A DNA stretch of 64,000 nt. It comes from Candidatus Pacearchaeota archaeon. Lineage in GTDB: Archaea; Nanobdellota; Nanobdellia; Pacearchaeales; GW2011-AR1. A program made the position numbers and the translations under genes. Where the stretch lies: NCBI GenBank assembly GCA_026395815.1, contig JAPLXZ010000012.1:487-64486 (forward strand). Direction: 5' to 3'. Position 1 is the first letter of the stretch. Every line of letters starts with the position of its first letter. The notes under the pieces are model-generated. The model saw only the letters and a list, made by a program, of their open reading frames with translations. It was not told the origin of the DNA and did no database searches. This document shows positions 17,277-61,800 of this stretch, in pieces.

Positions 17277-17288
17277 AAAAGAAATTTT

Positions 17289-18637: not shown

Positions 18638-18649
18638 AATCAGGAGGAA

Positions 18650-19442: not shown

Positions 19443-19446
19443 TAAA

Positions 19447-19737: not shown

Positions 19738-19776
19738 ACAACAAGATTTTTAAATTAAATAATCCTATTTTTTGAT

Positions 19777-20148
19777 ATGATGAATAAAAGAGGGCAGGGA
19801 TTAGAGACAGGTACAATTATTTTGATAATCTTAGGAATTCTTGTTTTAGTTGTTTTAATTTTAGGGTTTACGATAGGATGGACTACAATTCTTCCTTGGC
19901 TTTCTCCAAATAATGTTAATACAATAGTAACTCAATGTGAAGCATCATGCTCTACAGGAGACATGTATGGATATTGCGCAATGGAAAGAACATTGAAATC
20001 TCCTGATTTGCCAGGAGGAAAGAAAGAGTTTAAGGCTAATTGTAGTTATTTCTCAGACTCCGCAAATTCAGGTTATGTAAAATATGGCGTGAAAATATGT
20101 CCGAATTTGTGTCCTGCTCCTACTCCTCCTGAAGAACCCATCCCTTAA
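19777..20148 (+). CDS. class III signal peptide (pilin-like) protein with Gln at +1, Cys-rich
   Basis: N-terminus MMNKRG/QGLETGTIILIILGILVLVVLILGF. This resembles the DUF361/EppA-substrate-type pattern. It has 6 Cys. Confidence 0.65.
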   Translation: MMNKRGQGLETGTIILIILGILVLVVLILGFTIGWTTILPWLSPNNVNTIVTQCEASCSTGDMYGYCAMERTLKSPDLPGGKKEFKANCSYFSDSANSGYVKYGVKICPNLCPAPTPPEEPIP

Positions 20149-20323
20149 ATAATTCTTATTTTTATGAAAATGGCATGTGACTATGATTATCCTCAGAGAA
20201 GAAACAAAAGAAAAAATAAGCGAAAAGAAAAAAAGAAACATCCGTATAAAAAAGGCGGAATTCAAAGAACTTCAAAATTTTTAGGAACAAAATAATTTTT
20301 AAATTAACTTTCTATGTATCTTT

Positions 20324-25220: not shown

Positions 25221-27356
25221 ATGGTTGATAAGAAGAGGTTTGATAGAAGTACAGAAAAATTCTTAAAAGTTATTCCTAAAAATGAAATCTTAATGATTGT
25301 AATTGTATTGGCTCTTGTTGCTATTGTTCTTGCAGCAGCACCATGGGCTGGTAAACCTGTTTTAAACGGTCCGGCTAATGCTAGTTCATGGTCAACATTA
25401 ATAACTCTTAGTTGTAATAGCACAGAGGTTGAATTTCCATTGAATGCAACATGGTATTATAATGCAAGTGGAGGAGAGATTGCCCTTAATGGAACAACAT
25501 ACAGATTGGGAGAAAATAATACTAATCCTGTTTCCTCAGATCCTTTCACCCTTGTTGTAGATGCTTCTTCGTTTCCTGATTCAAATAGTTATAATGTTAC
25601 TTGTGTAGTATGCAATTCTACTTGTAATAGTACAAATGTTCTACGTGGTTGGAGGGCTAACTATTCGTCACAATCTACCATTAATGTTACAATTGATAGT
25701 AAACCTCCAAGGGTTACTGGATTGTCAATCCTGAATCTTACAGATGGAAATTTTGGAAATTACAGTAACAATCTAAGAATAAATGTAAGTGTTAATGATA
25801 GCACTATTAGTGCTCCAGGAATAGTACAGGGTCGAGCTGAGAGGATGAATGTATCATCAGTTTATTTTAACTTTAGTTATATTAGTGGTTTGAATGTTAC
25901 TGGAATGTCAAATCTTCTTGCAACCAGAGAGAAAAGGGGTAATTCGTGGATATTTGCAATTAACCTTAGTGATCCTACTGTATGGAATGCATCAGACGGA
26001 TTTTATTATGTTTATGTAACTACAAACGATACTGTAGCTAGTACTGAAAATCCAACAGGTAATTACAATAGAACCACAAAAATTACAATTCTCGTTGATA
26101 AAAGTACAGCCCCTCGTGTTGTTGATTTCGTAGGGACTATTAATGATTCAGTTAAAACAGGAGTGATTACATTAAATGTAACTGTATGGGGTGGAAATGT
26201 TAGTGATGTATATTTTAATATAACAAATAGAAGTGGTGGCGGTGGCGCAGGTGCACATCCAACTGGCAGACAAGTTAGTTTCAATAGAAGTTCTATTGCC
26301 GGATTGAAAGTAGGAGTAAAAACCAGTAAAGTTAGCAATTATTATAATTATACTTTTAATAGTGCAGGATTCCCTGATGGAAAATATAATATTACAGTAT
26401 TTGCAAACAGGACAAATTATACCCAGTTTGCTGGTGAAGCAGATCCTACTAATTTCAGTGAAAGTGTGTTAAATAATTCAGAACATATACAAATAACAAT
26501 AGATAATACTGCACCTTCAGCAACATATACATGTAGCCCAAGTTCAACTACTTTAGGACAAGTTGTCAAATGTACTTGTGTAGGAAGCGATGGAACTTAT
26601 GGTTCTGGAGTTAAGTCAACAACTACAACTACAGGTACTATAACTGCTACAGCAACAGGAACATTTAGTCCTACTTGCACTGTTACAGATAATGTTGAAC
26701 TTTCAACTACTGCAACTGGCACATACACAATTACTAGTGTGGGAAGTGGAAGTACTGGTGGAGGAGGCGGAGGTTCAGGAACTACAACAAGCAAGGCTAC
26801 AATTACTCCTGAAAACCCTGCAACCATGACTGGATTTGCAGAAGGTACAGGAATAAAGGCAATTGAAATTGCTGTTTTACAAAGCGTGGAAAATGCTGCA
26901 GTAGTAGTAACAAAATATGATACTAAACCAACAGCAGTTCCTGTTGAGAAAACAGGCAAAGTATACAAATATGTGCAAATATCTGCTCCAGATTTAGGAA
27001 CTAAATTAAAGACAGCTACTATAACTTCATTTGTTGAAAAAACTTGGGTAACTCAACAAGGATTGCAGAAGGAAGATGTTGCACTATTCAAATTTGATGA
27101 AGCTACAAACAAATGGTACGAATTGCCTACAACTTATTCAAAAGAAGATACTAATAATTATTATTACACTGCTACAGTTTCAAGCTTCAGTTACTTTGTA
27201 ATTGCAGCTAAGACAGTAGAAGCACCTCCTGTAGAAGAGCCTCCAACAGAAGGAGTAGCAGGTATACCTCTTTGGATTTGGATTGTTGCAGGAATAGTTA
27301 TAGTAGGAGCAATAGTTGTTGGTGGTGGACTTGCTGCTAAGAAGAGAAGAAAGTAA
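25221..27356 (+). CDS. cell-surface glycoprotein candidate (PGF-pre-PGF-like domain, C-terminal TM anchor)
   Basis: It has an N-terminal anchor or signal and dozens of N-x-S/T sequons. Ig-like modules are visible (ITIDNTAPSATYTC). Near the C-terminus it reads KYVQISAPDLG...VALFKFDEATNKWYELPT...YYYTATVSSFSYFVIAA, followed by a TM helix plus KKRRK. Confidence 0.6.
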   Translation: MVDKKRFDRSTEKFLKVIPKNEILMIVIVLALVAIVLAAAPWAGKPVLNGPANASSWSTLITLSCNSTEVEFPLNATWYYNASGGEIALNGTTYRLGENNTNPVSSDPFTLVVDASSFPDSNSYNVTCVVCNSTCNSTNVLRGWRANYSSQSTINVTIDSKPPRVTGLSILNLTDGNFGNYSNNLRINVSVNDSTISAPGIVQGRAERMNVSSVYFNFSYISGLNVTGMSNLLATREKRGNSWIFAINLSDPTVWNASDGFYYVYVTTNDTVASTENPTGNYNRTTKITILVDKSTAPRVVDFVGTINDSVKTGVITLNVTVWGGNVSDVYFNITNRSGGGGAGAHPTGRQVSFNRSSIAGLKVGVKTSKVSNYYNYTFNSAGFPDGKYNITVFANRTNYTQFAGEADPTNFSESVLNNSEHIQITIDNTAPSATYTCSPSSTTLGQVVKCTCVGSDGTYGSGVKSTTTTTGTITATATGTFSPTCTVTDNVELSTTATGTYTITSVGSGSTGGGGGGSGTTTSKATITPENPATMTGFAEGTGIKAIEIAVLQSVENAAVVVTKYDTKPTAVPVEKTGKVYKYVQISAPDLGTKLKTATITSFVEKTWVTQQGLQKEDVALFKFDEATNKWYELPTTYSKEDTNNYYYTATVSSFSYFVIAAKTVEAPPVEEPPTEGVAGIPLWIWIVAGIVIVGAIVVGGGLAAKKRRK

Positions 27357-39446: not shown

Positions 39447-40103
39447 TTAATTTTTAAACTTGTTTGTTTTCCATCTCAATGGAAGTTTATTATCAAACCT
39501 TATATAATAAAAGGGAATATTATTGGTATAGTTTATCTTTGGATTAGAGCAGTTTAAATTCAATCTTTGGCACAATTTACTTACTTCTTTTATTAGATTA
39601 ATCCTTTTCTGCTTAAATTGTATCCTCTTCTTATAGACGCTACCATCAGTGTCAACCAATCCTGCTAAATAAGCTGATGCATAATTTTTGTTAGTCTCAA
39701 CTATTTTTGGCAGATTTCCTACCTTCTTTTTTCCTATTTCGCTCCCCAAATTTGCAAAATAAAAAAAGAATGCGGCATTCTCTATTCTTAGATAATATGA
39801 ATTTTTCTTCCTTTTGTCTCTATTAATCCTTCCATCAATTAGAAAAAGACTACCTAATAATCCCTTAAGGTAATTAATATATTCTTTACTTCCGGAATAT
39901 ATCCTAAAAAGATAATGATAACCCCCTCTTTTTCTTTCAGTTATACTTAACGAACCATCACCATCTATAACCCCCAATAGATAGGCAATATCCTTGTTTA
40001 CTTTAGGAATTTTTATTTTACTCTTTCTTGTTCTAATTGAATCGGATTCTATTTTGTGGTAAATGTTTCTATTGGACAGTTCTTCAGAAATTCTTTTAAT
40101 CAT
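39447..40103 (-). mobile_element. free-standing double-motif LAGLIDADG homing endonuclease gene
   Basis: Two LAGLIDADG motifs (LLGVIDGDGSL and LAGLVDTDGSV) in 218 aa. Its stop is 19 nt upstream of tRNA-Thr on the same strand. Confidence 0.8.
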
Positions 40104-41168: not shown

Positions 41169-41414
41169 TTACCCTGCCTTTTTGGCAAAGATATTTTTGA
41201 TTGTTTCAATCAATCCTTCAGGAATAATTGGTTGTTTAAGGTAAAGTCTTATTCCTATCCATAAAACCAAAATGACTATCAGAGCAATTATTATTGTCTT
41301 TGAACTAGAGCTCTTTCTTCTTCCTGTAAAACTATGACCGCATTTTATGCAGTATGAATCACCTGAATCTGCAGATTTTCCACATCTTGGACAGAACTTT
41401 TTTTGTTTCGCCAT
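41169..41414 (-). CDS. zinc-ribbon membrane protein
   Basis: CPRCG...CIKCGH zinc ribbon followed by one TM helix. Confidence 0.55.
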   Translation of the reverse strand: MAKQKKFCPRCGKSADSGDSYCIKCGHSFTGRRKSSSSKTIIIALIVILVLWIGIRLYLKQPIIPEGLIETIKNIFAKKAG

Positions 41415-41452
41415 ATTGTTATATGGTTTTCTTATTTATAAAATTAATCAAA

Positions 41453-41596
41453 TGGTCCCACCAAGAATTGAACTTGGGTTTCATCCATCTCGATGTTTAC
41501 ATCACTTCTTTAAAGGAAGTTGATTGTCAGAGTTAAATCTTGAAGATTTTACTCTACAACGTCAAGGATGTGTCTTAGCCACTGGACTATGGGACC
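41453..41596 (-). tRNA. tRNA-Val(GAC) with 72-nt canonical (37/38) intron at 41488..41559
   Basis: Hand fold: acceptor GGTCCCA/TGGGACC, anticodon stem CATCC/GGATG, loop TTGACG..T, T arm CCAAG-TTCAATT-CTTGG. BHB geometry: TTGA pairs with intron TCGA and is flanked by 3-nt bulges. The D stem has one C-A mismatch. Confidence 0.8.
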
Positions 41597-41641: not shown

Positions 41642-41836
41642 ATGATTATGAAAAGCGGTTTTAAAACACTCTGGTTTTTATTGCATGCTGTAATTGGATT
41701 ATATCTAATAAATTATCAATTTAAATTTGTAAACCTTGACATCTTTTCTACAATCGACGGATGGATAGTTCTTATCGGCGGCATTTTATTAATAATTGCA
41801 GGTGTAATGTCTCTAAGAAAGTCTGATACTCAATAA
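41642..41836 (+). CDS. small two-TM membrane protein
   Basis: 64 aa with two hydrophobic helices. It lies 41 nt upstream of the next gene on the same strand. Confidence 0.5.
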   Translation: MIMKSGFKTLWFLLHAVIGLYLINYQFKFVNLDIFSTIDGWIVLIGGILLIIAGVMSLRKSDTQ

Positions 41837-41877
41837 GTTTTGATAAGATTTATATACGTAATTCCCATTATTTTTTC

Positions 41878-43710
41878 ATGCACAATAAAAGAGGGCAAGT
41901 TACTATTTTTATAATAGTTGCAATCCTTATTGTAGCAGGAGTCATAGGTTTTTTTATTCTAAGGCAACAGTTATCAGTCCAATTCATCCCTGCAAACTTA
42001 AACCCAGTTTACAAAACTTTTTTATCATGCTTGGAAGATAAAACTCTTGTTGGGATTGATGTTCTTGAAAGCCAAGCAGGATATATAGAACTGCCAGCGT
42101 TTAAACCAGGAAATTCTTACATGCCCTTTTCATCACAACTTAATTTTTTGGGAAATCCAATTCCATACTGGTACTATGTTTCAGAAAATAATCTTCAAAG
42201 AGAGCAGGTGCCTTCAAAAGAGAAAATGGAAGAGCAACTTAAGAAATTTGTTGAGGATAATGCAAAAAAATGTGATTTTGAGAATGATTATGCAAATGGT
42301 TTTGAAATAGTTCAAGGAGAACCAAAAGCAACAGTAACAATTAGGAATAATAACGTGAATGTAAAGCTGAGCATGAATTTTGATATTGCAAAAGGAGAAG
42401 ATAAAGTTTTAGTAAAAAATCATGACGTTTCAGTTCAATCTAAATTAGGGACATTGTATAATTCAGCAAGAAAAGTCTATGATAAAGAGCAAAAAGAATT
42501 ATTCTTAGAAAATTATGGGGTGGATACTTTAAGGCTTTATGCTCCTGTAGATGGAGTTGAAATTTCATGCAGTCCTAAGATATGGAATGCTGATGAAGTA
42601 TTTAATAATCTAAAAGATGCAATTGAAATGAACACTTTTGCATTAACAACTCAAGCTTCATCTAAAGAAAATAAATATTTTGTTGTTGATGTTCCTGTTA
42701 GCGAACAAGTGAGATTTATCAATTCGAGAAATTGGTCAAATAGTTTTGAAGTTTCTCCTTCTGAAGGAAGTATTTTAATATCTAACCCTGTTGGAAATCA
42801 ACCTGGATTAGGCATCTTAGGATTCTGTTATGTTACTTATCATTTTGTTTATAGTGTTAAGTATCCCGTTTTAATTCAGGTTTCTAGTGGAGATGAAACC
42901 TTTCAATTTCCAGTAGCTGTTGTTATTCAAGGAAACAAGCCAAGAGAAGCATTAAATTCAGAAGCAAAGGCAATTGGCGTTGAATTATGCGCATATAAGA
43001 ACACACTTGTTAATGTTAGGACTTATGACACGAGTTTGAATCCAGTCAATTCACACATATCTTATGAGTGTTTCGGGGAGATTTGTGATATTGGGGATGC
43101 TTCTTCAGGACTTTTAAGTGCTGAATTTCCTCAATGCGCAAATGGTTTTGTTGTAGCAACAGCAACTAATTTTGAAGAGACTAAGCAATTATACTCAACA
43201 ACACAATCAGGAGATGTTAATGTGATTATGGATAAACTTTACAATTTAAACGTCAGATTAAAATTAGATGGAAAGGATTATAATGAGAAAGCAATAATAT
43301 CTTTCACTTCTGAAGAAGGAAATTCCAAAGTTGTTTCTTATCCCGAACAAAAGAGCGTTAAATTAACTGAAACTCAATATGAAGTTCAGGCTTATATCTA
43401 TAGAGATTCTTCAATACAATTCCCTGAGACAAGCTATCAGCAATGCATAGATGTTCCAACTTCAGGCATTGGCGGATTGTTTGGAATGAAAGAAAAGAAA
43501 TGTTTTGATATTAAAATACCAAGTCAAACGATTTCGAGCGTGCCTGCTGGTGGAGGAACACAGCAATATTATCCATTAGAATCTGAATTGAAGAATTCAA
43601 ATACAATTGAGATAAATGCAAAAGGGCTGGCAGTTCCAAAATCACTCGAAGAAATTCAAACTGCTTATGCAGCCTTAGAGAGCAATGGTTTGGATATAAA
43701 TTTGAAATGA
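41878..43710 (+). CDS. large (610 aa) protein with class III (pilin-type) signal peptide
   Basis: N-terminus MHNKRG/QVTIFIIVAILIVAGVIGFFIL, with Gln at +1 as in 19777..20148. The remainder is predicted extracellular with several Cys. No family recognised. Confidence 0.6.
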   Translation: MHNKRGQVTIFIIVAILIVAGVIGFFILRQQLSVQFIPANLNPVYKTFLSCLEDKTLVGIDVLESQAGYIELPAFKPGNSYMPFSSQLNFLGNPIPYWYYVSENNLQREQVPSKEKMEEQLKKFVEDNAKKCDFENDYANGFEIVQGEPKATVTIRNNNVNVKLSMNFDIAKGEDKVLVKNHDVSVQSKLGTLYNSARKVYDKEQKELFLENYGVDTLRLYAPVDGVEISCSPKIWNADEVFNNLKDAIEMNTFALTTQASSKENKYFVVDVPVSEQVRFINSRNWSNSFEVSPSEGSILISNPVGNQPGLGILGFCYVTYHFVYSVKYPVLIQVSSGDETFQFPVAVVIQGNKPREALNSEAKAIGVELCAYKNTLVNVRTYDTSLNPVNSHISYECFGEICDIGDASSGLLSAEFPQCANGFVVATATNFEETKQLYSTTQSGDVNVIMDKLYNLNVRLKLDGKDYNEKAIISFTSEEGNSKVVSYPEQKSVKLTETQYEVQAYIYRDSSIQFPETSYQQCIDVPTSGIGGLFGMKEKKCFDIKIPSQTISSVPAGGGTQQYYPLESELKNSNTIEINAKGLAVPKSLEEIQTAYAALESNGLDINLK

Positions 43711-43734
43711 TAATAAAAAAGTAGAAAAATAGTA

Positions 43735-46700
43735 ATGAAAATAAATAAAAAAATTCAACTTGGAGTGCTTTTGCTAATTGTAATTGTACTTAGTTCAATT
43801 TGCATTTCAGCAACATATATGAGTTCAAATCCGCAATATACTCAATATAATGTACAGGGTTCAGGTACTTTTGACAGCTCAATGTGTCAAGCAGGGACTG
43901 ATTTTATAATTCAAATTGCTCATTTTGGATGCACACCTGCAGTTGTAAGAGATGATTTGCTTGAAGAGCAGGATGTTCCTGTTTTTTGTCAAATTGCAGC
44001 AACCCAGATTAATCCATTGATTGATGTTGAAGCAATTGATAGCATTTCTTTTTCAGGACAATATCCTCCAATTGTCAAGGGGATTGGCTTTCATCCTGCA
44101 AGCGCAGCACTTGGAGTTCAAAATGACTTGAACACTCCAATTCTAAGCAATATAGGTTATGTAGTTATTTTATTAAGGAAGCAGACAAACACTTCAGCAA
44201 TTCCTAATTTTGTTATAGGCAATTTAACAGCAAAAATAAAATATGATGTTAAGAATACGCTTGGAGTCGGAAGTGCTTTGTTTTATTTGCCTGAATTTGA
44301 AAATGAAGAAGAATGGATTTCAAAAAAATCACAATATGGATTTTGGAATGGAAAGGGATATTTGAGAGCAGAAGATATAAGCAGCAATGGAGCAACGATT
44401 TCTGTTTACAATGATGCCAGAGAAATTGCAAGCGTGAATTTACAAAAAGGAGAAACTTCTGAAAAAATTGCTATCCCTGGATTTGAATGCACTGCCAGTT
44501 TAAGATTGAAACTTGGAGGATTGGAAAATCCAGATACAAGAGCGCAATTAAGAATTAATGCAGAAGTTATTGAGGTTGGAAAAGGAGAGAAGTTTTTGGA
44601 AAACAAATGCCAAGTAAAAGATTTGAGCAAGAGAGGACTCGTGCAAAGAGTTATTCTTAAATGTCAGGAAGATACAGGAACAAAAACCTTCAGTTTAATA
44701 ATAAGCCCAAGATTAAGCTTTACAATTAACGGAGAGGAGAAAGAAGTCGGTTTAGGAGATTATTTGTATGATAAGGATAGTAGTAAAAAAGTTTTCTTAG
44801 GTTACATAGGAACCAAAGGAAATTCAAACAACCCAGAAGAATTAGGAGTTTATCTTGTTGCACTTCCTAGAACATCTATGGCAGCATTAAGTGAGGCTGA
44901 ACTTTCTTCTATTACTTCTTTAGGAGATTTAATAAATTCTCAAGCAGCATCAAGCGGGATTATTGACATAACTTCTTCAGCAATTAAATCTGTTGCAGGT
45001 TTGGTTAATCAACTTTCTCGATATATAACAAGCGGACAAGAAATTTACAGATTGTATCAGGGAGATGAACAAATTGTTTTTGGCAGGGAAGTTTCTTTTT
45101 CTGGCTTTGCTGATGCACAAGATATAGAACTTGACAGCAGTGTAACGGAATATTATAACAATGCAAAAGAAGATTATGAGACAATCAGAGAAAGTTATTC
45201 TACAGAACCTTACAATGAAAAAGCGAGTTTTGGAGAAGAAGCTTTGTATAATGAGATAGTTCTTGCTTGGGATGCAAGTCAAAAGATAACTGTCTTGGAT
45301 TTATGCGCAGAATTTGAAGATAGCTATCCTAATTCAGAAAAGAAAAAGGAGATAGAAGGATATTGCAAGAATAACTACGGACTTTCAAATCAGGAAAATG
45401 CTGCTAAGCAGGTTACAATCAACGGAGTAAACAAGGAAATTACATTTGATAGAATTTCTGAACCAAATTTGGATGAGTATGGTGTTCATATACAAGTTTC
45501 TAGTTCAAAGGGAAATGATGGCTATGATTTAAAGAAAAATCAAATAATTTATTTAAGCAGTTCTTCAAATGATTTCATCCAACTCATTTCTGCTGATGAT
45601 AATTCTGCTAGTATAAAGGTAAGTGTTGCAACTTCAACTGCTGGCCAAATAATCGAATTAGAAAAAGATGTTATGAAAAAGAGGGGGGATTATTCTCTTA
45701 CTCTTACACAAGTCAACTTAAAGAAACTTGCAAAAGTTTCTGTTATTCCTGGATATGAAAATGCAGGAACAGAAGCTAAGTTTGGATTTAAAATTGGGAT
45801 AGAAAAGAGAAATGTTGTATTAGTTCCAGAAAAGATAAGAGAAAAAATTATTAATATAACTGCACAAATAAACAAATGGCAAAATTATTCGGATTCTATA
45901 GGAAAAGGAGTTGAGGCGCTTAAATCAGCTTGTCTTGTTACAGGTGCAGCATTAGTTGTTAAAAATTTCCTTGCAAATGTTGGAGGAATGGGAATTGCAA
46001 GGCAACAAATTATGAGAGGAGTTGGAGGATGGTTTAAAAAATGTGATGCTTTAGTAGCAAGCGGGAATTACATATCACAAGACGATTGTTTATTGAAAAA
46101 TTCAGACCAAATAGACAAAGATGTAAAAGAATTAAATAATATACTTGGTCAGCAGAATAGTAATATAAAGGAATTGGAAGAAGGAATTACAAAGCAGCAA
46201 TTTTTGACAGAAAGTGTTGTTGATACAAAACAATTCATGAAGAGATACATACTAAGTGTTACAACTTATTTAAACAATAATCTTGAAACAACTATTGTTG
46301 ACCCAAGTGGAAAAGGAGAGCCAATAAACAAAGCAGATATTTTATCAATTCTTTCTTATGCAAATTGGGAAGAAGGAAAATACACTAAGGAGCAATTAAG
46401 AGACATTGAACTTTATGCAAGAATGATGGAAGATGCAAGTGCAAGCCAGGAATTAAGGGATATTGCAAATGCAAGGCTTTATTCTGTTTTATCAGATGTA
46501 ATGGAGAATTCTGCTAATCTTGTTCAGACTACAAACTGGGCAAGTAGTTTAGGTGTTCCACCAAGCAAGACTAATTTCATAGAAGTTGGAGGAAATGTAA
46601 GAAGAGAACCATACCAAGGATTAAAAATCAGTGATATAGGGATGAATATAAATGGTTTTTCTTCAGATACTCCTATTGCTTTAGTTTCTACTTCAGATGG

Positions 46701-49700
46701 AAGAAGATATATAATTGTTTTGGATGACTCTTCTGGACTGCCTCAAATTCCTATAATGAGAACAAGCGATAATAAACTTGCAATTTATGATTCTTTAGGG
46801 GCTTTTGTTGAAAATCCTCCTGTAGAATTAACAAAATTGTATTTTGAAAAGTTTGATTCAACAACTTATCAAAACCAATACAAAAATCCACAGCTTAGAT
46901 ATTATGAAACAGAGCCATATAAAGGATTGCCTGCAATTGTTCCATTTGATTTGAAAAAAGGATGGTATGCTGCTACAAAGCAAACTTTGCCTGTTGGTGG
47001 AAATATACAATCATACGATGCTTCTGGAAGAGTGAGTAGCTTTTATTTGTGTAATGTTGGACCAGATGGATTAGAAGAAAACATCGGTGGAAATGATATT
47101 TGTCAAATGATTAACACAGGAACAGGAATGCCTTACAATGTTTTTCCAGGACTTAGTGAAACAGAAGCAAAGAAGTATGTTGATTGTGGAGTTAGTGCAA
47201 TTGAGCAAGCTTCAAGAGCATATAAATCCGGAATTTCTGGAACCATTAAAATTTCTACTTCTTGTGGAACTGTTAACCCAACAGTTGGCTCGCCTGCAGT
47301 GGATACTCCTCAAATGGAATGCCAAGATTTCATGTCTCCTAAAGAATGTTTGTTGTTATTCAATCTTTGTGACCCTGTAATTTGTCCTTCAAGCAGATGT
47401 GATTTAGGAGGAGCATATCCTGTTAAAGATGTAATTCAATCAGGAATAATTGGAAGTCTTGTCTTATGTTTGCCGAATATTCGAGAAGGAATTGTTATAC
47501 CTGTTTGCCTTACAGGAGTTAAAGCAGGAATAGATGGTTTGTTGTCAGTTATGACTTCTTATAGAGATTGTCTGCAAGAAAGTTTAGACACAGGAAAAAT
47601 GGTTGGAATATGTGATGAAATTTATAGCATATATATGTGTGAATTTTTATGGAAACAAGCATTGCCTATCGCAAATCTTATAATACCAAAAATGATTGAG
47701 ATACTTCTTGGACAGAATGTTAGGGGAGGAGGAGAATATTTAGGAGTAGCAAATGCATGGAGTGCTGCAGAAAAATCAATAAATTATTTTACTCAATATT
47801 ATGGGGCAAATTCAATGAAGGCATTTCAAGCAAGAACAACAGAAGGCTTAGGCACTGAAATTTGCAAAGTATATGTTTCAGGAGTTTATCCAGAAGGAGG
47901 AAATTTACTTGACACTTTAGTGCAGCCAGATTCACCTCCCCAATTCCATGGAAGATTTGATGAGATTCCCTTCACCTCTGCAACTGTTCCCTCAATTTCA
48001 CAATATAAGGTATTCTATCACATTTATGCAGGAAAAGATTCAGGAGTTTATTATAAGGTTTATCTGGCAGGAATTCCGGGCAGTTCATATTACCAAGATA
48101 CATCAGAGACATTGATTGTTGCTTCTGGTTATGTTGCTGTTGGAAGTTATGCTACTGAAACAAAAGATTTTACTGCTCCTTCAGGATATAAGGAGTTGTG
48201 CATAAATGTAAACGGACAAGAAGAATGTGGATTTAAAGAAATTTCAACTTCTTTTGCAGTTAATTACATCGAAGATTTATATTTGCAGGAACAAGCAAAT
48301 CAGACAGACATTCAAACAGAAGCAGAATGCATTTCAGGAACTGCAAGTGCTTATAGTTTGCTAAATCCAAATACAGAAGCAGCAGCAGAAGAACTTATCA
48401 ATCCCGCAATTTACAATGAAGGAATAATCAGAATCTGCGCAACATTAAGTCCTGGAAAAGGAACAGACCCTTATTATGGGACAGAAGATGCAAGATGGAA
48501 GCGAGTTGGTTATTGTGGAGATGAGACTATGAAATGCTGGCTTGACACACAAAGTGTTGAAGATGTAATAATAACAACAACGGTTGAAGGAGAAACCTTA
48601 GAAGATGTTACAGATAGCTATCTAGATATTTTGCAAAATGAAGAGGGATATTTGAGCGAAGAACAATTTGAATCAAATGTTACAAAGATAAAAAAAGAAG
48701 ATGATCCTTCAAAGAGAATAAATCTTATTAATGGGATATTAGAAAAGGTTTTCTTAAATAATGAGAAAGCAGAATTGTTATTGTTAAGAGGAAATGCTTA
48801 TTATGAGATTATGAGAATTGTTTTGAGCAGGGTAATTGTTGAAAAGGAAAAAACCTTGCCAGAAATAATTTCTACAGCCACTCCAACAGAAAATGTCACT
48901 GAATCTTCAATTACAACTCTTCCAGAAATTCCAGAAGAACTCGCTCCAGAGCCAGAATCTGCAATTGGACTTAAAATTTGGCAGACTGCTAAGAATTATG
49001 CTGTTAGCGGATGGGATGAATATAGAGTATTAAGCAGCGGGGCCGAGGAATATACTAATGTTTGCACTAGATTTGTTATTCGTGTAATGATTAAAGCAGG
49101 TGTTACAACTCCTAGAATAGTTGATGTTAGTGTGAAGTCAGGAACTAAAGAACTTAAAGACACTTATACGCCTTTGGAAAATATGGACAGTTTGATTCCA
49201 ATCTTTACAACAAGCAATGATTTTGTGGAAGTGGGTGTAAATAAGTTAGAAAGAGGGGATATAGTTATGTTTGGATTTGGAACCGAAAAAACTCAGCATA
49301 TTATAATCTTTGATAGTTATACATCAGATGGAAAATACATCAATGGTTATGGAGATCCTGGAAAACCACCAATCACTACTGTTTTTGGTGCTAATAATAA
49401 CAAGGTCCAATTAGAAAAATATCCTATTAAATCTTCTAATTCAAACGAATTGTACTTTTATAGAGCATTCAGGTATACAGGAGATTTAAGTGCAGAAGAA
49501 AAAGCAAAGGAAGAAGCAGCAGCAGTAACTCATACAGAAACTCCTGTAGAAGAACCCCCAACAGTAACTGAAACAAGCATGAGTAAGAAAATATTACAGA
49601 CTTCTATAAACCTTCGTGCTCAAGGTTCTACTGGATCTTCTGTTCAATTTGTAAGCAAAGTATTGATTGGAGCAGGAGTGCAAGGAATAACTTCAACTTC

Positions 49701-50253
49701 ATCTGTTAGTTCTCTTGTTTCAATGATTGAGAAAAGCAAAAACTTTTTTAGAATATATCCAGAAAAAAGCAAGGGAGGAGATATACTTATTACTGGAAGC
49801 GTATGTAATATCTTTGATTCTGCTTCAGTGTTAGAATATGTTTCAGATGATTCTAGTGAGATTAATGGGCAAGCTATCCCATTAGTTTCAGAGATAAGCA
49901 ATGGGATTTATGTTTCTAGAGCGTATAGGTATGTTGGAGATTTAAGTGAGACAGAAAAAAACAGGCTTCTTTATGTTACTCAAGAAGTTCCTGGGTTATG
50001 GGATTTAACTAGTGCTATTCAAGAAATCGACAGCGGACCTGGGGGAAGTTATACCGCAAATAAAGTCTTTGTAGACCAACTGATATTTGATGGAATTTTA
50101 ACAAAAGCAGATTGTGAATATATGAGAGGAATAAATACTATCTTTGGAAGTTTAGGCGGTGCACTACTACAGAAAAATATGAATGACCTTAGAAAGCTTT
50201 TGCTTCAGAAATGCTTATATGATGAGGCATGCAAGAAAAATTATTCTTCTTAA
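43735..50253 (+). CDS. giant (2172 aa) secreted Cys-rich protein with C-terminal tandem papain-like (NlpC/P60- or CHAP-like) modules
   Basis: The 6.5-kb ORF is uninterrupted. It has a Sec-type signal (KKIQLGVLLLIVIVLSSICISA) and a Cys-rich hydrophobic core at about 47314-47715. C-terminal module 1 (48967-49490) has Cys1777 (NVCTRFV) and His1855 (TQHIIIF). Module 2 (49579-49945) is homologous but lacks both residues. Confidence 0.7.
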   Translation: MKINKKIQLGVLLLIVIVLSSICISATYMSSNPQYTQYNVQGSGTFDSSMCQAGTDFIIQIAHFGCTPAVVRDDLLEEQDVPVFCQIAATQINPLIDVEAIDSISFSGQYPPIVKGIGFHPASAALGVQNDLNTPILSNIGYVVILLRKQTNTSAIPNFVIGNLTAKIKYDVKNTLGVGSALFYLPEFENEEEWISKKSQYGFWNGKGYLRAEDISSNGATISVYNDAREIASVNLQKGETSEKIAIPGFECTASLRLKLGGLENPDTRAQLRINAEVIEVGKGEKFLENKCQVKDLSKRGLVQRVILKCQEDTGTKTFSLIISPRLSFTINGEEKEVGLGDYLYDKDSSKKVFLGYIGTKGNSNNPEELGVYLVALPRTSMAALSEAELSSITSLGDLINSQAASSGIIDITSSAIKSVAGLVNQLSRYITSGQEIYRLYQGDEQIVFGREVSFSGFADAQDIELDSSVTEYYNNAKEDYETIRESYSTEPYNEKASFGEEALYNEIVLAWDASQKITVLDLCAEFEDSYPNSEKKKEIEGYCKNNYGLSNQENAAKQVTINGVNKEITFDRISEPNLDEYGVHIQVSSSKGNDGYDLKKNQIIYLSSSSNDFIQLISADDNSASIKVSVATSTAGQIIELEKDVMKKRGDYSLTLTQVNLKKLAKVSVIPGYENAGTEAKFGFKIGIEKRNVVLVPEKIREKIINITAQINKWQNYSDSIGKGVEALKSACLVTGAALVVKNFLANVGGMGIARQQIMRGVGGWFKKCDALVASGNYISQDDCLLKNSDQIDKDVKELNNILGQQNSNIKELEEGITKQQFLTESVVDTKQFMKRYILSVTTYLNNNLETTIVDPSGKGEPINKADILSILSYANWEEGKYTKEQLRDIELYARMMEDASASQELRDIANARLYSVLSDVMENSANLVQTTNWASSLGVPPSKTNFIEVGGNVRREPYQGLKISDIGMNINGFSSDTPIALVSTSDGRRYIIVLDDSSGLPQIPIMRTSDNKLAIYDSLGAFVENPPVELTKLYFEKFDSTTYQNQYKNPQLRYYETEPYKGLPAIVPFDLKKGWYAATKQTLPVGGNIQSYDASGRVSSFYLCNVGPDGLEENIGGNDICQMINTGTGMPYNVFPGLSETEAKKYVDCGVSAIEQASRAYKSGISGTIKISTSCGTVNPTVGSPAVDTPQMECQDFMSPKECLLLFNLCDPVICPSSRCDLGGAYPVKDVIQSGIIGSLVLCLPNIREGIVIPVCLTGVKAGIDGLLSVMTSYRDCLQESLDTGKMVGICDEIYSIYMCEFLWKQALPIANLIIPKMIEILLGQNVRGGGEYLGVANAWSAAEKSINYFTQYYGANSMKAFQARTTEGLGTEICKVYVSGVYPEGGNLLDTLVQPDSPPQFHGRFDEIPFTSATVPSISQYKVFYHIYAGKDSGVYYKVYLAGIPGSSYYQDTSETLIVASGYVAVGSYATETKDFTAPSGYKELCINVNGQEECGFKEISTSFAVNYIEDLYLQEQANQTDIQTEAECISGTASAYSLLNPNTEAAAEELINPAIYNEGIIRICATLSPGKGTDPYYGTEDARWKRVGYCGDETMKCWLDTQSVEDVIITTTVEGETLEDVTDSYLDILQNEEGYLSEEQFESNVTKIKKEDDPSKRINLINGILEKVFLNNEKAELLLLRGNAYYEIMRIVLSRVIVEKEKTLPEIISTATPTENVTESSITTLPEIPEELAPEPESAIGLKIWQTAKNYAVSGWDEYRVLSSGAEEYTNVCTRFVIRVMIKAGVTTPRIVDVSVKSGTKELKDTYTPLENMDSLIPIFTTSNDFVEVGVNKLERGDIVMFGFGTEKTQHIIIFDSYTSDGKYINGYGDPGKPPITTVFGANNNKVQLEKYPIKSSNSNELYFYRAFRYTGDLSAEEKAKEEAAAVTHTETPVEEPPTVTETSMSKKILQTSINLRAQGSTGSSVQFVSKVLIGAGVQGITSTSSVSSLVSMIEKSKNFFRIYPEKSKGGDILITGSVCNIFDSASVLEYVSDDSSEINGQAIPLVSEISNGIYVSRAYRYVGDLSETEKNRLLYVTQEVPGLWDLTSAIQEIDSGPGGSYTANKVFVDQLIFDGILTKADCEYMRGINTIFGSLGGALLQKNMNDLRKLLLQKCLYDEACKKNYSS

Positions 50254-55058: not shown

Positions 55059-55586
55059 CTATTTTCCAAATCCAGAACAATAATCTTTGTAGATTTGTGA
55101 ATATTTCTCTTTAAGATTTCCATACTCTTCTCTTATTCTTTCATTCCCTTTTTTATATTCTTCTTTACTTATGTATCTCTTTTCATATGCTCCTTTTAAA
55201 GAAAAAACTCGTAACTTAAGGTTTTCAACACTACTAACAATCTCTCTTGACTTTGCGTCTAAACTTTTAATCTTGTTTTCTGTCTTTTCTAAATTATTAA
55301 CAAGTCCCTTAAGAGACATCAATCCGAGTAATACAAACATGCTTGTTAGTGTACTGAGTGTTAGGCTTATTAATTTTCCTGCAGAAAACATAGATTCTAT
55401 GTTTATTATTCTTCCAAGAGTATAAAATATTGCTGGAATAGATGAAATTAAAAAGAGTATCAATGCATTTTTTAATTCTCCTGTAGTTTTTTTTATAATC
55501 TCTGTGCATATAAGAATTCCTATGAGTATTATAAATAATCTTATTATTGCTACTGGCAGTTCTAAATAATAAATTGCAAATTCCAT
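55059..55586 (-). CDS. membrane protein with C-terminal coiled coil
   Basis: About four N-terminal TM helices followed by a heptad-rich K/E tail. It is the last gene of the same-strand surface-protein cluster. Confidence 0.5.
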   Translation of the reverse strand: MEFAIYYLELPVAIIRLFIILIGILICTEIIKKTTGELKNALILFLISSIPAIFYTLGRIINIESMFSAGKLISLTLSTLTSMFVLLGLMSLKGLVNNLEKTENKIKSLDAKSREIVSSVENLKLRVFSLKGAYEKRYISKEEYKKGNERIREEYGNLKEKYSQIYKDYCSGFGK

Positions 55587-57304
55587 TATCTACCTCTTCT
55601 TAATAGATTAGCCCTTAAAAGGACATTTTTATCTATCTTATAATCACTTTCTCCCTGTTTTTTAACTTTCCTTTTTCTAATCATAATAATTATTATAAAC
55701 AAAACCATGAAGACAGCTAAAGCTATTGTTGCTATCTCAAGAGGAATTGTCGGAGCTTTTCCTACATTAAACAAGACGCTTGAACTTGCTACTTTTCCAT
55801 TATAAGTTATTGTTATATAAATTACATATCTGCCGAATGCTGCTGTTTCTGGTATTTTAAACTCTTTTACATAACTTAACTTGGTTTGTACTGCAAGGTC
55901 TTCTCTTTCAGTCAATATTTCATTTCCTTTCCAATCCATTATTTTATACTCAGCAAAAACATCAACTTCTTTTTCAATTTCTCCTAAGTTATAGATTTCC
56001 ATTTCTGCAAGTAAGTCTTCACCTGGCATTACATAACTATACTTTTGCGGAATCTTGACTGTAGCATCGAATATCGGTTCTGCAGATTCTACTTCTATTA
56101 TTGTTAGAATTCTTTTCTCCTGTCCACTTGCTGTTACATTTATTTCCCCTATATATAAGTTAGGAATGGTTTCCTTTTGCACCATTATCTCTAAGGGTAT
56201 AACTCTTGATTCTTTTGGAGCTAATTTAAATTTCTTTTCGCTTATAAAAACAAATTGTTCAATTTTTGAGATTCCTATTTCTACATCTAATTCTTTATCT
56301 CCTGTATTAACTATCAATACCTGTTCTCTTGTAGTATGCCCCTGTTGTAATTTTACTTTTATTTCATCTTCACTTAAACTAAAGTCACTTATCTTTGCTT
56401 TTCCTCCTCCACCACCTCCTCCTCCACCGCCACCAGGACCAGTTACTACTGTTACTTCAGTTGTATTTTCTTCTGCAGAATAAGAAACTGAAAACTGAGT
56501 TACATTAAACTTTAAAGTTCCTCCAGAATAATTTTCTTTTGTGCAAATAAAAGAGGGGCAGACTTCTCCATCTATTAGTATTCTTGCGTCTGAAAAAGTC
56601 AAGCCATAAAGCCATAATGTTACCTTTTTGTTAAAGTTAGGCAAGGCTGTTGAATTTAGCGCAATCCTATTTGAAGAAATATTAGCATTTGTATCTAAGT
56701 CGACTTGATTATCATTAAAATTTTCATCAGCAGTCATGTTTATATTTTCATTAAACAGAATCTTTCCAGAATTTGTATTTTCCAGTATGATTCCGCTTAA
56801 GTTTTGCACATCTTCATAAGACAATATTGTGAAATTTGTCGAGTTTCCTTTCTTAGTTCCTTTCCATTCTTCATGGATTATTTGAAATCTGGTTGAATTT
56901 ACAAAAAAACTTACATTTTGTTCTGTTACATCCCCATAAGTATTATTTGCATAAAGATAAAGCATATATCCTCCATCTGTTGCATTGAAATAAAAAGGAG
57001 AAGATAAAGTAATATTCGTTCCTGAATTAAGATTGTACCAAACTGCTTGTTGCCCGCTTGCAGAATAATTTAGAGGAATTGAAAATCCATTAAAATATGT
57101 CTCATTTTGTGGAGAGATTATTGAGAGTATTGCAGTTGTAGTGGGAAGAATGTATATGGACATATCTGTTGTTTGAGCTGATGCTTTGCCAGTGATGTCT
57201 CCTGTTTTTTCAGTTTTCTTTGGCAAGTTTTTTATTATTATAAAACTGATTAGAAATAAAACTATTAATATAAACAGGAACAAAAATACCCAACCTCTTT
57301 TCAT
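55586..57304 (-). CDS. cell-surface protein (N-terminal signal/anchor, sequon-rich, poly-Gly linker, C-terminal TM anchor)
   Basis: It has many N-x-S/T sequons and the run GPGGGGGGGGGGGKAK. A CARDB/NEW3-like segment is present (LIVNTGDKELDVEIG). The C-terminal TM is followed by RKRKVKK. Confidence 0.6.
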   Translation of the reverse strand: MKRGWVFLFLFILIVLFLISFIIIKNLPKKTEKTGDITGKASAQTTDMSIYILPTTTAILSIISPQNETYFNGFSIPLNYSASGQQAVWYNLNSGTNITLSSPFYFNATDGGYMLYLYANNTYGDVTEQNVSFFVNSTRFQIIHEEWKGTKKGNSTNFTILSYEDVQNLSGIILENTNSGKILFNENINMTADENFNDNQVDLDTNANISSNRIALNSTALPNFNKKVTLWLYGLTFSDARILIDGEVCPSFICTKENYSGGTLKFNVTQFSVSYSAEENTTEVTVVTGPGGGGGGGGGGGKAKISDFSLSEDEIKVKLQQGHTTREQVLIVNTGDKELDVEIGISKIEQFVFISEKKFKLAPKESRVIPLEIMVQKETIPNLYIGEINVTASGQEKRILTIIEVESAEPIFDATVKIPQKYSYVMPGEDLLAEMEIYNLGEIEKEVDVFAEYKIMDWKGNEILTEREDLAVQTKLSYVKEFKIPETAAFGRYVIYITITYNGKVASSSVLFNVGKAPTIPLEIATIALAVFMVLFIIIIMIRKRKVKKQGESDYKIDKNVLLRANLLRRGR

Positions 57305-58896: not shown

Positions 58897-61800
58897 TTAT
58901 TCTCTTTTATTATTATTATTAAATAAATGGTTTTTCTTTATTATCCTTGAATAGGTTGTCCAAATATTCCTTTGGTCTCTGTTAAGCAATCTGGCTATTT
59001 CACTGTATTTCATTCCTCTTTCTTTTAAGTATAAGATTATAGACTCTAAGACTGTAAGATTATTATCCTTGAATATTGAAATAGGCATCAGCATTCCTTT
59101 TTCCTTAATATCAAATGATTCTCCTTTCTTTTCTTTTGCTTTCTTGTAACTCGTCCAGATTGTTCTTTCATTTCTTCCAATCTCTTTTGCAATTTCCCTG
59201 TAATTCATGTTTAGATTTTCTTTCATGTATTTAGCTATAGATTCTAAGCATCCGAGTTTGCTTGAGAAGATGGTTATAGGAATTTTTAATTCTTCTTCAG
59301 ATTTTATCATTTCTAAAATTTCTTTTCTGCTTATCTTGTACCTGCTCTTTAATTTTTCAATTATTATTTCCAGCAATTCTACTTTGTTTAGCGAGTATTC
59401 TTCTTTTAATTCGTCTGTGATTAAATTTAATGCTTCAAGAAGTCTCTCGTTCTTTAGCAATTCTTTATTTTTCTTCCTTCTCTTAGGAATTAATGCAATT
59501 AACAGTATTCTTATTGTCCATGCTTCCGAATTGTTTGTTGCGTATGTCTGAGAATAAATCATTGGAACTTTTGGAATGCAAAAATACAATGTTTCTTGGC
59601 CTAAACTTGTTGCATTTGCAGCAGATACATTTCCTCTTGATAAATTTGCTCCTACTATTCCCACATATGTTGCATTTACAAGCAATGTTCCTGTATTACC
59701 TTGACTGATGTTTGCACACATGCCCGAATCACTATTCGCGTTCCAACTTGCAGTTATATTGCTTACATTGAGGTATTTATTAGTCGTGCTCATTCCTTGA
59801 AGGTCAATTGCATTTATCTGTATGTTTCCAGAATTAATCATTACATTTCCTGTGTTATTCAATGTTGTATTCTGTTTTGATGTTTTGTTGGTGTCTCCCT
59901 GCACTAAAGTAGGCCAGGTAGTTAAATTTGGATTAATGATGATTGCCTTTAAAAAATTATATTCGAATGTAACTGTGTTATTTGTTGTTGAATTCTCTGA
60001 ATTGTCTTTTGCAGAAACTGTTATGTTCCATGTTCCATTTGCATCCCAATACCACATTCTTATTGCACAAGTAAAGTTAGATTCATTTCCTGCACTCTGT
60101 TCACTTATGACTGAACAGCTTGAATTCTCCCTTATTGCTTCTCCTGTTCTTGTGAACGACGCATTTATTCCTGAATTATTTATGTTGCTGTATCCGTTTA
60201 CATCATAAACTGTTGCATTAAAGTTTATATTTACAACGCCTGCTTCTGTTGGGTCTGTTGCAGGAATAACAGAAACAAAAGTTAAATTAGGAGCTTGATT
60301 GGCTGCTGCAGTAATCGTAACAGTTCTCTGTTCTGTCTGGTTTACATTTCCTGCTGCGTCAATTGCATAGGCAGTGAAGTTATATTGTCCAGCACTTAAT
60401 CCTGTAAAGTTGTTGTATAATTTGTAAGTTCCTGCATTGTAGGAAGCATTAATTTCTTCTGGAGATAATGCTCTTGAGAAAATCATTACCTCGTCGATGG
60501 AACCATTGAACTGTTCTCCAGGATACCTGCCTAGAATCAAAGATTCATTAGAAATCGTTGGAGCGTCATTACCAGTTCCAGAAGTCCAAGAACCGCTGAC
60601 ATTAACCCCATCAACATACCATTTAGCAGAAGAACTTGTTCCGAATGTATAAGTAAAAACAGTATGATGCCATGTACTTGAAGTAAATACTGCAGATGAT
60701 GTTTGAAATATTTTCCATCCTCCTCCAGAATTGTAGTAAAATACTAATTCCCGTGCTGCTCCAGCAGTTCCGCTATTAGTTTGAGTGCCATAATTACAAT
60801 TACTACTACTACCTTTTGTAAGACTAGCCTGACCACTTGTCGTGGGATTGTCTGACTTTATCCACATTGAAATAGTAATATTATCTCCTAAGTCAAAATC
60901 TAATGAACTGTTACTTCCCGGGTCTGGAATATTCAAATAATCATTTATTCCGTCAAATTCCAATGCCTTTCCTCTTGGTCCAGAGACTAAATTCCCTGTT
61001 CCTAATCCTCCAGTAAAATTTCCATGATTTCCCCATGTTGAATTATCATAAACTCCTGTTGCATTATAAGAATCCATGCTCCACCATCCTACTAAATTCC
61101 TGTTCCAGTCAATAAATGCAGAATGCTCATTTGCATCACTTGTAGAAACATTGACATAAACAGATGTTGCTGTTTGTGATGAAGCATTATCAGGAGTAGG
61201 GTCTGTAAAGTTTATGTTTGGTTTTATTATGTCAATTCCAAATGTAATTGTTGATTTGTTCTCATTTCCTACAGTATCATTTGCCCAGACAGTCACATTA
61301 TGTTTTCCTTCTGCCCATGTTATGTTCGTTATATTCTCACAAATACCTGCTGTTCCTAATGATAAATTTCTTGCCATAGTGTCATTACTATACCAGCAGC
61401 TTCCTATTGCAACATTATCTGAAACAGTGTAATTTACATCTAACCCTGTATTAGAAGAATATGTATTGTTTGAAGGAGTGACTATTGCGATATTTGGCTT
61501 GATTGTTTCAGCCGTAATCGTCACACCTCTCTGTTCTGTCTGATTCACATTTCCTGCTTGGTCAATTGCATAAGCAGTGAAATTGTAGTTCCCAGTTGGC
61601 AATCCTGTGAAGTTGTTGTAATATTGGTTTGCAGAAGCATTATACAATGCTTTAATTTCTTGGGGAGAAAGGACATGGTTGAAAATCATTACTTCGTCAA
61701 GAGAACCATTGACACCTTCTTCAGCATAATCTGGCTGAGGAGCCCCTATATAAAGGTTAAAATTAGTGAGTGTTCCCGAGCCTCCTCCTGATATGCTGGA

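Follow-up and report, generated by a model that had tools for sequence, protein, structure and literature searches.

We analyzed a 64,000-nucleotide stretch of contig JAPLXZ010000012.1 from a Candidatus Pacearchaeota archaeon (assembly GCA_026395815.1), which we refer to as the window, and focused on three consecutive genes on its forward strand that encode a small membrane protein, a 610-residue protein, and a 2172-residue protein that we call the giant. With moderate confidence, we propose that the 610-residue protein and the giant, loosely accompanied by the small protein, form, in DPANN archaea of the Pacearchaeota type, a lineage-specific surface complex that presents murein hydrolases to bacterial walls. 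An earlier reading of the same sequence, here the original prediction, had described the three gene products as a filament-associated adhesin and envelope-breaching complex without a characterized counterpart. Of that interpretation, the gene module, the pilin-like N terminus of the 610-residue protein, and the papain-like tail of the giant stand, whereas the adhesin role and a tie to the pilus are not supported and the notion of a wholly unknown system is only partly right.

The three open reading frames (ORFs) lie at 41642-41836 (+; 64 residues, or possibly 62 from an ATG at 41648), 41878-43710 (+; 610 residues), and 43735-50253 (+; 2172 residues), separated by spacers of 41 nt (41837-41877) and 24 nt (43711-43734), exactly as originally placed. 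The window is AT-rich (≈31% GC), and the skew over the region is strand-consistent, as in coding DNA. Co-conservation of the trio had been put forward as a check on the original prediction, and we surveyed gene linkage in 83 related loci, the denominator being 75, 79, 80, or 53 depending on the question. In each of the 75 loci whose flanking DNA extends far enough, the giant gene directly follows the 610-residue gene on its 3′ side and on the same strand; nine loci flagged by an initial adjacency filter turned out to be overlaps or late-starting alignments. In 45 of 79 loci, a 4-nt overlap joins the stop codon of the 610-residue gene to the start codon (ATG) of the giant, and in 62 of the 79 the two lie no more than 30 nt apart; such an arrangement typically marks genes that are co-transcribed and translationally coupled.

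The surroundings of the pair are equally stable. In the window, the upstream neighbors, on the opposite strand, encode SRP54, FtsY, phosphoglycerate mutase, GINS, S3Ae, and L44e, and the giant is followed by a tRNA-Leu gene, an opposite-strand TFB gene, and, further on, S8e (all protein assignments by Pfam). Across the related loci the kept order is S3Ae, L44e, small gene, 610-residue gene, giant, TFB, S8e: S3Ae and L44e come before the trio, the 610-residue gene stands between the L44e/S3Ae genes and the giant in every related locus, and TFB follows the giant in 48 of 53. The trio sits among housekeeping genes and not on a mobile element. The pair is single-copy and occurs almost throughout the lineage, and we found no paralogue of any trio member in the window. 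We considered and rejected a mobile or viral origin, given the fixed position among ribosomal protein genes and a tblastn search against 50,697 phage records that returned nothing.

The small membrane protein follows this pattern less strictly. A hidden Markov model (HMM) built from its homologues detects it in a same-strand ORF ending less than 400 nt upstream of the 610-residue homologue in 67 of 80 loci, with four further loci holding it at another position, which upholds the claimed co-conservation; this search superseded an ORF-based screen with start-site and gap limits that had recovered the gene in just 32 of 77 loci. The protein has two hydrophobic segments and conserved G-[LI]-Y-F-[IL]-N and G-G-x-L-[LI]-I-x-G motifs, and it matched no Pfam, NCBIfam, or PHROGs family. 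Because its distance from the 610-residue gene varies from 32 to 386 nt across loci, because it diverges fast, and because a TATA-like box (TTTATATA) is found ≈26 nt before the ATG of the 610-residue gene in the window, the small gene may be a looser member of the module that is possibly transcribed separately.

Neither large protein is a chance ORF, as their homologues number in the hundreds to thousands. The 610-residue protein matches more than 2163 homologous database clusters, the top 120 of which align over the full length at 58 to 88% identity, and its homologues occur in 451 genomes, counting one genome per GTDB species. These genomes are named Pacearchaeota, Woesearchaeota, Nanoarchaeota, or simply "archaeon," with a single contig labeled Bacillota. 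That contig (DATKUW010000047.1, deposited as "Bacillota bacterium") bears a homologue at 57% identity and is probably a misbinned Pacearchaeal contig. For the giant we found at least 481 homologous clusters, with all homologues deriving from metagenome-assembled genomes of Pacearchaeota or Woesearchaeota type. Its core (residues 1030-1700) matches representative sequences of 1084 clusters formed at 50% identity, in 940 cases with E ≤ 1e-30, and is always located at approximately residues 1050-1750 of homologues that range from 1700 to 3800 residues in length.

Median identities across the same loci, taken from one tblastn run for all proteins, place the pair on a common scale with its neighbors. 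TFB is the most conserved (93%), followed by L44e (74%), SRP54 (72%), phosphoglycerate mutase and GINS (71% each), S3Ae and FtsY (68% each), and S8e (67%). Residues 1030-1700 of the giant and the 610-residue protein reach 59% and 58%, respectively, ahead of giant residues 1-400 (51%), the small membrane protein (40%), and giant residues 401-1029 (37%); the giant tail (residues 1701-2172) stands at 32% and is detectable in only 12 loci. Since the exported pair is only about ten points under cytoplasmic housekeeping proteins, the 610-residue protein and the core of the giant are under unusually strong purifying selection. Such constraint argues against a fast-evolving adhesin and in favor of a precise structural or mechanical role, and the 610-residue protein, at 58%, is far more conserved than is usual for the adhesin it had been taken to be.

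A separate feature of the two sequences is a depletion of N-X-S/T sequons, with one in the 610-residue protein against ≈6 expected and eight in the giant against ≈18 expected from a rough, composition-based estimate. This depletion is unusual among archaeal surface proteins.

The 610-residue protein starts with MHNKRG/QVTIFIIVAILIVAGV, where the slash marks a putative A24 cleavage site after Gly6. The leader (residues 1-6) and the hydrophobic helix that follows it (QVTIFIIVAILIVAGVIGFFIL, residues 7-28) are encoded at 41878-41961 (+). The ORF at 19777 begins in the same way, with MMNKRG/QGLETGTIILIILGI, and the Gln +1 class III-type N terminus that had been noted in both proteins is thus seen as KRG/Q in each and proves near-invariant among homologues of the 610-residue protein. 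Among 100 of these homologues, Q at +1, F at +5, and G, A, or S at -1 are each found in 100%, T occupies +3 in 99%, and R or K occupies -2 in 94%, and the residues after +5, I-I-I-A-I, are more than 90% conserved. The resulting motif, [KR][GAS]/Q-V-T-I-F-I-I-I, stands behind a leader that varies from 5 to 36 residues in length. A fixed junction behind a variable leader is the pattern of a prepilin-peptidase substrate, and it appears to exceed what a signal anchor would need.

PibD/EppA-type A24 peptidases process archaeal pilins, archaellins, and the Sulfolobus bindosome proteins, and Gln at +1 occurs in EppA-type pilins. The 610-residue protein shares with these class III proteins a short basic leader ending in [KR]-[GA], a hydrophobic stretch of the expected ≈20 residues (≈22 here) and Gln +1, and the genome also codes for an A24 prepilin peptidase. 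This peptidase, a polytopic membrane protein at 20324-21169 (+), 20 kb away, had already been named as such in the original prediction, and it matches PF01478 well above the curated cut-off (E = 4.8e-11; 43.5 bits versus 26.5). It is the presumed processor of the 610-residue protein, which it would cleave after [KR]-G. Unlike the known class III proteins, the 610-residue protein is far larger than a pilin, is encoded outside the pilus operon, and matches neither the Pfam Class_IIIsignal/DUF361 model nor the NCBIfam archaeal flagellin N-terminal domain.

Beyond its N terminus, the 610-residue protein resembles no named family. It matched no Pfam family at E ≤ 1 and nothing in PHROGs, NCBIfam returned just a chance match to SecE (E = 0.11), and searches of PDB sequences and profiles with both the single sequence and alignments gave no credible match. 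All ten of its cysteines are invariant. An AlphaFold2 model (predicted local distance difference test [pLDDT] score of 80.5) runs from the N-terminal helix through a linker of low confidence to an alpha/beta region (residues ≈42-260), with several beta-sandwich domains after it. Foldseek searches with this model retrieved only generic Ig/CnaB-like multidomain surface proteins at template modeling (TM) scores of at most 0.17, among them the Bacillus anthracis TIE protein, Gram-positive pilins and adhesins, Ig-like parts of teneurins, and SlaB. The model looks like a stalk, and the 610-residue protein may well serve as one; no function can be read from the model.

The giant begins with a lysine-rich and hydrophobic signal-like segment (residues 3-32), in line with the Sec-type signal ascribed to it, and by hydropathy it has no other convincing transmembrane segment. 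Its first ≈1700 residues, in which no nameable domain had been recognized, indeed gave no match to Pfam, NCBIfam, PHROGs, or PDB sequences, including when searched as five subsegments and as profiles of 60 to 100 homologues. The description of the protein as Cys-rich also holds, as ≈28 cysteines are invariant in 60 homologues and two more are nearly so. We find a conserved N-terminal region at residues ≈50-400 (43882-44934, +), with six invariant cysteines, column conservation of 0.56 to 0.82, and no family match. The most conserved core, residues ≈1040-1610 (46852-48564, +), holds a Cys cluster at residues 1196-1302 (47320-47640, +) in which 10 invariant cysteines coincide with the highest column conservation of the protein (0.80-0.84). 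Taken together, the sequence features suggest a disulfide-rich scaffold of ≈1700 residues with ≈28 to 30 conserved cysteines.

The original prediction had placed a hydrophobic core within this scaffold. The region is Cys-rich as described, but its hydrophobicity is borderline (Kyte-Doolittle maximum of 1.61), and we rejected transmembrane helices here, where charged and polar residues interrupt the sequence. An AlphaFold2 model of residues 1030-2172 (pLDDT 68.6) contains confident beta domains at residues 1039-1190 and 1403-1505 as well as confident C-terminal modules. A Foldseek search of the PDB with this model returned just a beta sandwich (E = 5.6e-3) and gave no fold match for the conserved core.

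In contrast to the core, the last ≈470 residues of the giant are variable, and it is here that an enzymatic function can be suggested. Module 1 (residues 1736-1935; 48940-49539, +) is a CHAP/NlpC-P60-like domain with a putative papain fold and a putative catalytic pair, Cys1777 and His1855. Across 19 first-copy modules, Cys1777 (V-C-x-x-F), the Gly-Asp at 1841-1842, and His1855 (Q-H-x-x-I-F) are invariant and occur in the canonical Cys/His order. The same 19 modules match NLPC_P60 (8 of 19, best E = 2.4e-3), CHAP (5 of 19, best E = 6e-5), and also Amidase_6, DUF1287, and Amidase_5, all of which are papain-fold cell-wall amidase families. A profile of the module has as its best PDB match the NlpC/P60 dipeptidyl-peptidase VI 3npf (E = 0.042), at the G-D…H segment, and Foldseek against BFVD retrieves phage CHAP proteins and an endolysin (E = 7.4e-5 to 1.4e-3, probability 1.0, target-normalized TM 0.42-0.52). 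We regard module 1 as a putative, active-looking Cys/His peptidoglycan amidase or endopeptidase.

Module 2 (residues ≈1971-2076; 49645-49962, +) is a diverged copy of module 1 (blastp E = 6e-7; HMM alignment E = 4.3e-10) in which the catalytic Cys is replaced by Ser1969 and the His by Val, the His-bearing segment being deleted or substituted. It is probably a noncatalytic or binding copy. The original claim of papain-like modules is therefore sustained at the level of the family by the Cys/His residues, the BFVD fold matches, and the scores of relatives, and less firmly by the window sequence alone, with the second module lacking catalytic residues. The protein ends in a helical domain (residues ≈2086-2172; 49990-50250, +; AlphaFold2 pLDDT ≈85-95) with the motif NK-x-F-[VI]-D-x-L.

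Comparison with homologues indicates that the tail is exchangeable. We located the end of the core in 249 giants, and the tails beyond it span 0 to 1838 residues; a CHAP/NlpC-P60-like module is present in 67 of the 249. Other tails carry SLT, Amidase_3 (N-acetylmuramoyl-L-alanine amidase), DUF1615 overlapping SLT, Trypsin_2, TPM, or LRR domains. Pfam scans of the window giant, whole and in segments, found no SLT domain. SLT-type giants share contigs with 610-residue homologues (e.g., P0106 with P0223 on a contig of length 51898 and P0086 with P0157 on one of length 35801), and the SLT-bearing P0086, P0093, P0094, P0096, P0106, P0112, P0118, and P0119 share the ≈1700-residue core at 47 to 49% identity. 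The presence of other murein hydrolases at the tail position supports the envelope-breaching role originally proposed, directed at a partner with a peptidoglycan wall. The terminal helical domain is common to nearly all tails regardless of enzyme, such that 229 of 241 clustered tails form one linked component and single-linkage clustering did not resolve the tail types.

Two repeats in these tails have no Pfam family. The ≈85-residue terminal domain, with the fuller motif W-x(3)-A-x(10)-Y-x(2)-N-K-x-F-[IV]-D-x-L, is repeated in some homologues, as seen in P0271 and P0320, and some homologues hold three copies. A second repeat, F-E-F-x-D-G…Y-Y-K-Y…W-x-W-S, appears in other homologue tails.

A mechanism can be outlined from these features. 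The 610-residue protein would be made with a prepilin-type leader and cut by the A24 peptidase, after which its hydrophobic N-terminal helix would keep it membrane-bound or part of a short pilin-like assembly, with its disulfide-bonded alpha/beta and beta-sandwich domains forming a stalk. The giant would be exported by Sec and, having no predicted membrane anchor besides its N-terminal signal, would probably be retained by binding the stalk protein, the two being produced in fixed proportion. Its scaffold would present an exchangeable C-terminal "warhead," here consisting of one active-looking module and one dead copy, and the complex would open or grip the bacterial sacculus locally at the contact site. 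To our knowledge, archaea of the Pacearchaeota type are not expected to make murein, and the target is thus most likely bacterial: the wall of a partner or of prey, or else debris. A constant scaffold with swappable heads spanning three murein bond classes likewise points to bacterial peptidoglycan as the substrate. Gene linkage, conservation, the N-terminal motif, the presence of the peptidase, the domain content, and the catalytic residues are observed, whereas cleavage, physical interaction, surface location, substrate, and biological partner are inferred.

Several observations weigh against this proposal. The module in the window falls below Pfam cut-offs (CHAP 13.8-14.6 bits versus 26, E = 0.047-0.088), with Amidase_6 likewise subthreshold, for which reason we call it CHAP/NlpC-P60-like and do not assign it to a family, and no papain-like fold was among the top matches when residues 1030-2172 were compared with the PDB using Foldseek. 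Some homologue tails (TPM, LRR, trypsin-like) are not murein hydrolases. The most conserved ≈200 residues of the giant (1190-1400) are modeled as long helices with pLDDT below 50, which would be compatible, speculatively, with folding only in an oligomer or against a partner. Gene linkage is the single line of evidence that suggests an interaction between the 610-residue protein and the giant. TATA-like boxes precede both the small gene and the 610-residue gene and may mean that these two genes have separate transcripts, although the boxes were read by eye and such strings are common by chance at 31% GC. Finally, we know of no Pacearchaeota host.

The giant itself most likely belongs to a family that has been noted before. 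Castelle et al. 2021 (PMC8204110) reported extracellular proteins of up to 3000 residues with a murein-transglycosylase domain (fam00969) that are confined to Woesearchaeota and Pacearchaeota, and proposed that these large proteins attach to bacterial walls; Rinke 2013 and Castelle 2015, as cited in PMC8204110, made earlier mentions, and PMC11537232 notes that many Pacearchaeota have GH23 transglycosylases and repeats the idea of wall attachment. The correspondence is by description: the giant is likewise very large (in the same class of 2000-3000+ residues), extracellular, and restricted to Pacearchaeota and Woesearchaeota, with the same proposed action on bacterial walls, but the giant in the window has a CHAP/NlpC-P60-like module pair in place of an SLT domain. 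The fam00969 paper (PMC8204110) does not describe a conserved scaffold, tail swapping, a partner of 610 residues with a class III signal, or an operon. More broadly, our literature search found neither the 610-residue partner nor the small protein described and likewise no account of the operon, the conserved scaffold, or tail exchange, and a 2026 preprint on complete Nanobdellota genomes does not mention surface proteins. What appears to be new here is the conserved operon partner, the strength of the constraint, and the warhead swapping. The original view that no characterized system has this composition therefore fails for the giant, whose family had been noted, and seemingly holds for the partner genes and the operon.

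The architecture of the giant recalls two groups of known proteins. In polymorphic toxins (CdiA, Rhs, and the Tae/Tge effectors), a constant N-terminal delivery part is joined to a variable enzymatic C terminus, and the giant similarly combines a constant core (59% identity between relatives) with a variable tail (32%). It differs from these toxins in having no downstream immunity gene, the tRNA-Leu and opposite-strand TFB genes following instead, in containing no Rhs/YD, PT-HINT, or other known trafficking or pretoxin domain in Pfam scans, and in being encoded in the housekeeping core and not on an island; immunity would be superfluous in an organism that lacks murein. Phage tail-associated lysins and tape-measure proteins and the conjugation hydrolases CwlT, PrgK, and TcpG, with two lytic domains, make a local hole in the sacculus at the point of contact. 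The giant is likewise large with a terminal lytic domain, and the best fold matches of its tail are phage CHAP proteins and endolysins, but the scaffold and the 610-residue partner have no sequence or PHROG similarity to phage proteins, and the giant is a chromosomal archaeal core gene.

A bolder version of our proposal, which we put forward tentatively and regard as rather unlikely in full, is that the pair and the small protein form the core of an undescribed contact organelle for bacterial partners. It would combine a prepilin-processed stalk with a giant, disulfide-locked scaffold of new fold and exchangeable murein-cutting heads. The heads would set the partner range, the Cys-cluster region (residues ≈1190-1400) would oligomerize or engage the partner membrane once the wall has been opened, and the whole would be an archaeon-on-bacterium counterpart of the organelle seen in Nanobdellota. 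Electron cryotomography of Nanobdellota (YN1, Nanobdella) shows a large attachment organelle embedded in the envelope, the proteins of which are unidentified (PMC11420986). That organelle serves host contact, and the module described here is likewise a large, conserved protein set directed to the envelope, in a related order. The parallel is a conceptual one; those cells have archaeal hosts and belong to another order.

The position and conservation of the pair would also suit a structural role resembling that of SlaA/SlaB in the Sulfolobales, with the giant as a canopy or lattice, the 610-residue protein as an anchored stalk, and the hydrolase tail as an accessory decoration. The two genes are single-copy, near-universal, and set among housekeeping genes; as with SlaA and SlaB, adjacent genes encode one very large protein and one medium-sized, membrane-anchored, beta-sandwich-rich protein; and strong purifying selection is what an essential structural role would produce. 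The beta-sandwich string of the 610-residue protein even retrieves SlaB (8qox_B, Foldseek E = 3.8e-4). This match is weak and generic, however (TM 0.13-0.17, 8% identity), like many other Ig-like matches, and we found in the pair neither similarity specific to SlaA/SlaB nor a small subunit with a coiled coil and a C-terminal transmembrane anchor. The anchor of SlaB is C-terminal and that of the 610-residue protein N-terminal, proteins of the surface layer (S-layer) usually diverge fast whereas the core of the giant retains 59% identity, sequons are depleted in both proteins, and swappable murein-hydrolase tails are foreign to S-layers. We consider an S-layer-like pair unlikely.

It is similarly improbable, in our estimation, that the complex serves scavenging or defense without a stable host, digesting free murein or dead walls for amino acids and sugars or lysing competitors. 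The enzyme repertoire would fit this function equally well, a reduced genome implies a need for external building blocks, and PMC11537232 proposes peptidoglycan from dead bacteria as a source of amino acids for Pacearchaeota. Against this, a constrained scaffold and a dedicated anchor in a protein system of this size (2172 residues for the giant) would be costly for a simple exoenzyme, and the catalytic loss in one of the two modules suggests binding over turnover.

The original prediction envisaged the 610-residue protein as a type-IV-pilin-like subunit at the tip of, or along, a filament that carries the giant to its target cell, and the window does hold a complete type-IV-pilus-like gene set at 10389-21169. 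This set comprises a T2SSE-type ATPase (10389-12689, Pfam), a 721-residue polytopic membrane protein with no Pfam match (13220-15385), five small pilin-like ORFs with [KR][GA]-hydrophobic N termini (17289-20148), and the A24 peptidase. The Gln +1 motif of the same type as in the ORF at 19777 and the >90% conservation of the first ten helix residues, beyond what a plain signal anchor needs, also speak for a pilin. The 610-residue gene, though, lies 20 kb from the pilin/ATPase/peptidase cluster, stands outside pilin clusters in every locus examined, and is always coupled to the giant; its product matches no pilin or class III signal model; and in the predicted structure the N-terminal helix leads by way of a low-confidence linker into an alpha/beta domain and not into a pilin head. 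Class III signals are found as well on archaeal surface proteins that form no filaments, such as the sugar-binding proteins of the Sulfolobus bindosome. A role as a pilus subunit seems to us quite improbable. Least probable, and indeed very unlikely, is that the papain-like modules are proteases or transglutaminase-like enzymes acting on proteins of the cell's own surface or a host S-layer: the papain-like clan includes such enzymes, the window module is under the threshold of every murein-hydrolase family, and some homologues have trypsin-like domains, but relatives of the module match NLPC_P60, CHAP, Amidase_6, Amidase_5, and DUF1287, all cell-wall amidase types, the best fold matches are phage endolysins, and the alternative SLT and Amidase_3 tails are murein-specific.

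A surface complex directed at bacterial walls would bear on the question of which partners an abundant, uncultured group with minimal genomes relies on and by what means its cells reach them. The present analysis turns a loose earlier observation, of large proteins with a transglycosylase domain in some members, into a defined system, namely a near-universal two-gene operon at a fixed place among housekeeping genes, with a prepilin-type anchored partner, a scaffold constrained nearly as strongly as a housekeeping protein, and a tail in which peptidoglycan hydrolases of three classes (glycosidase, amidase, and endopeptidase) replace one another. If tail types track bacterial partners, they could allow host prediction and guide co-cultivation. 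The scaffold and the 610-residue protein, for which we detected no relative of known structure, would reward structural study, and the conserved genes supply antigens with which the contact site could be located by immunoelectron microscopy or electron cryotomography.

Other ORFs in the window may add to the cell envelope. A 572-residue protein (55586-57304, -) starts with MKRG/WVFLFLF, has a second hydrophobic segment near its C terminus and a subthreshold PG_0320-like_C match, and is a candidate for a further surface protein with a class III signal outside the pilus cluster. A 711-residue ORF (25221-27356, +) with hydrophobic N- and C-terminal segments and no Pfam family is an unannotated envelope protein, and the 423-residue ORF that follows it likewise has no family. 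A 1678-residue ORF (58897-63933, -), the start of which is near the end of the window, contains four Laminin_G_3 domains and Big_13 domains together with C-terminal matches to helix-turn-helix and sigma-70 region 4-like domains; hydropathy reveals neither an N-terminal signal nor a transmembrane segment, and the combination of parts resembling lectins with parts resembling DNA-binding proteins is odd.

Two further features lie upstream of the trio. A free-standing LAGLIDADG homing-endonuclease ORF (39447-40103, -; PF14528, E = 2.2e-15) lies between GINS and S3Ae and, as it is detectable in just five related loci, is probably a recent mobile insertion into an otherwise fixed gene order. An intron-containing tRNA gene (41453-41596, -), between a zinc-ribbon ORF and the small membrane-protein gene, scores 48 bits against the Rfam tRNA model and carries a ≈75-nt insert in the anticodon-loop region. 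ARAGORN does not report it, its anticodon looks by eye like GAC (Val), and its presence makes the + strand ORFs at 41347-41536 spurious.

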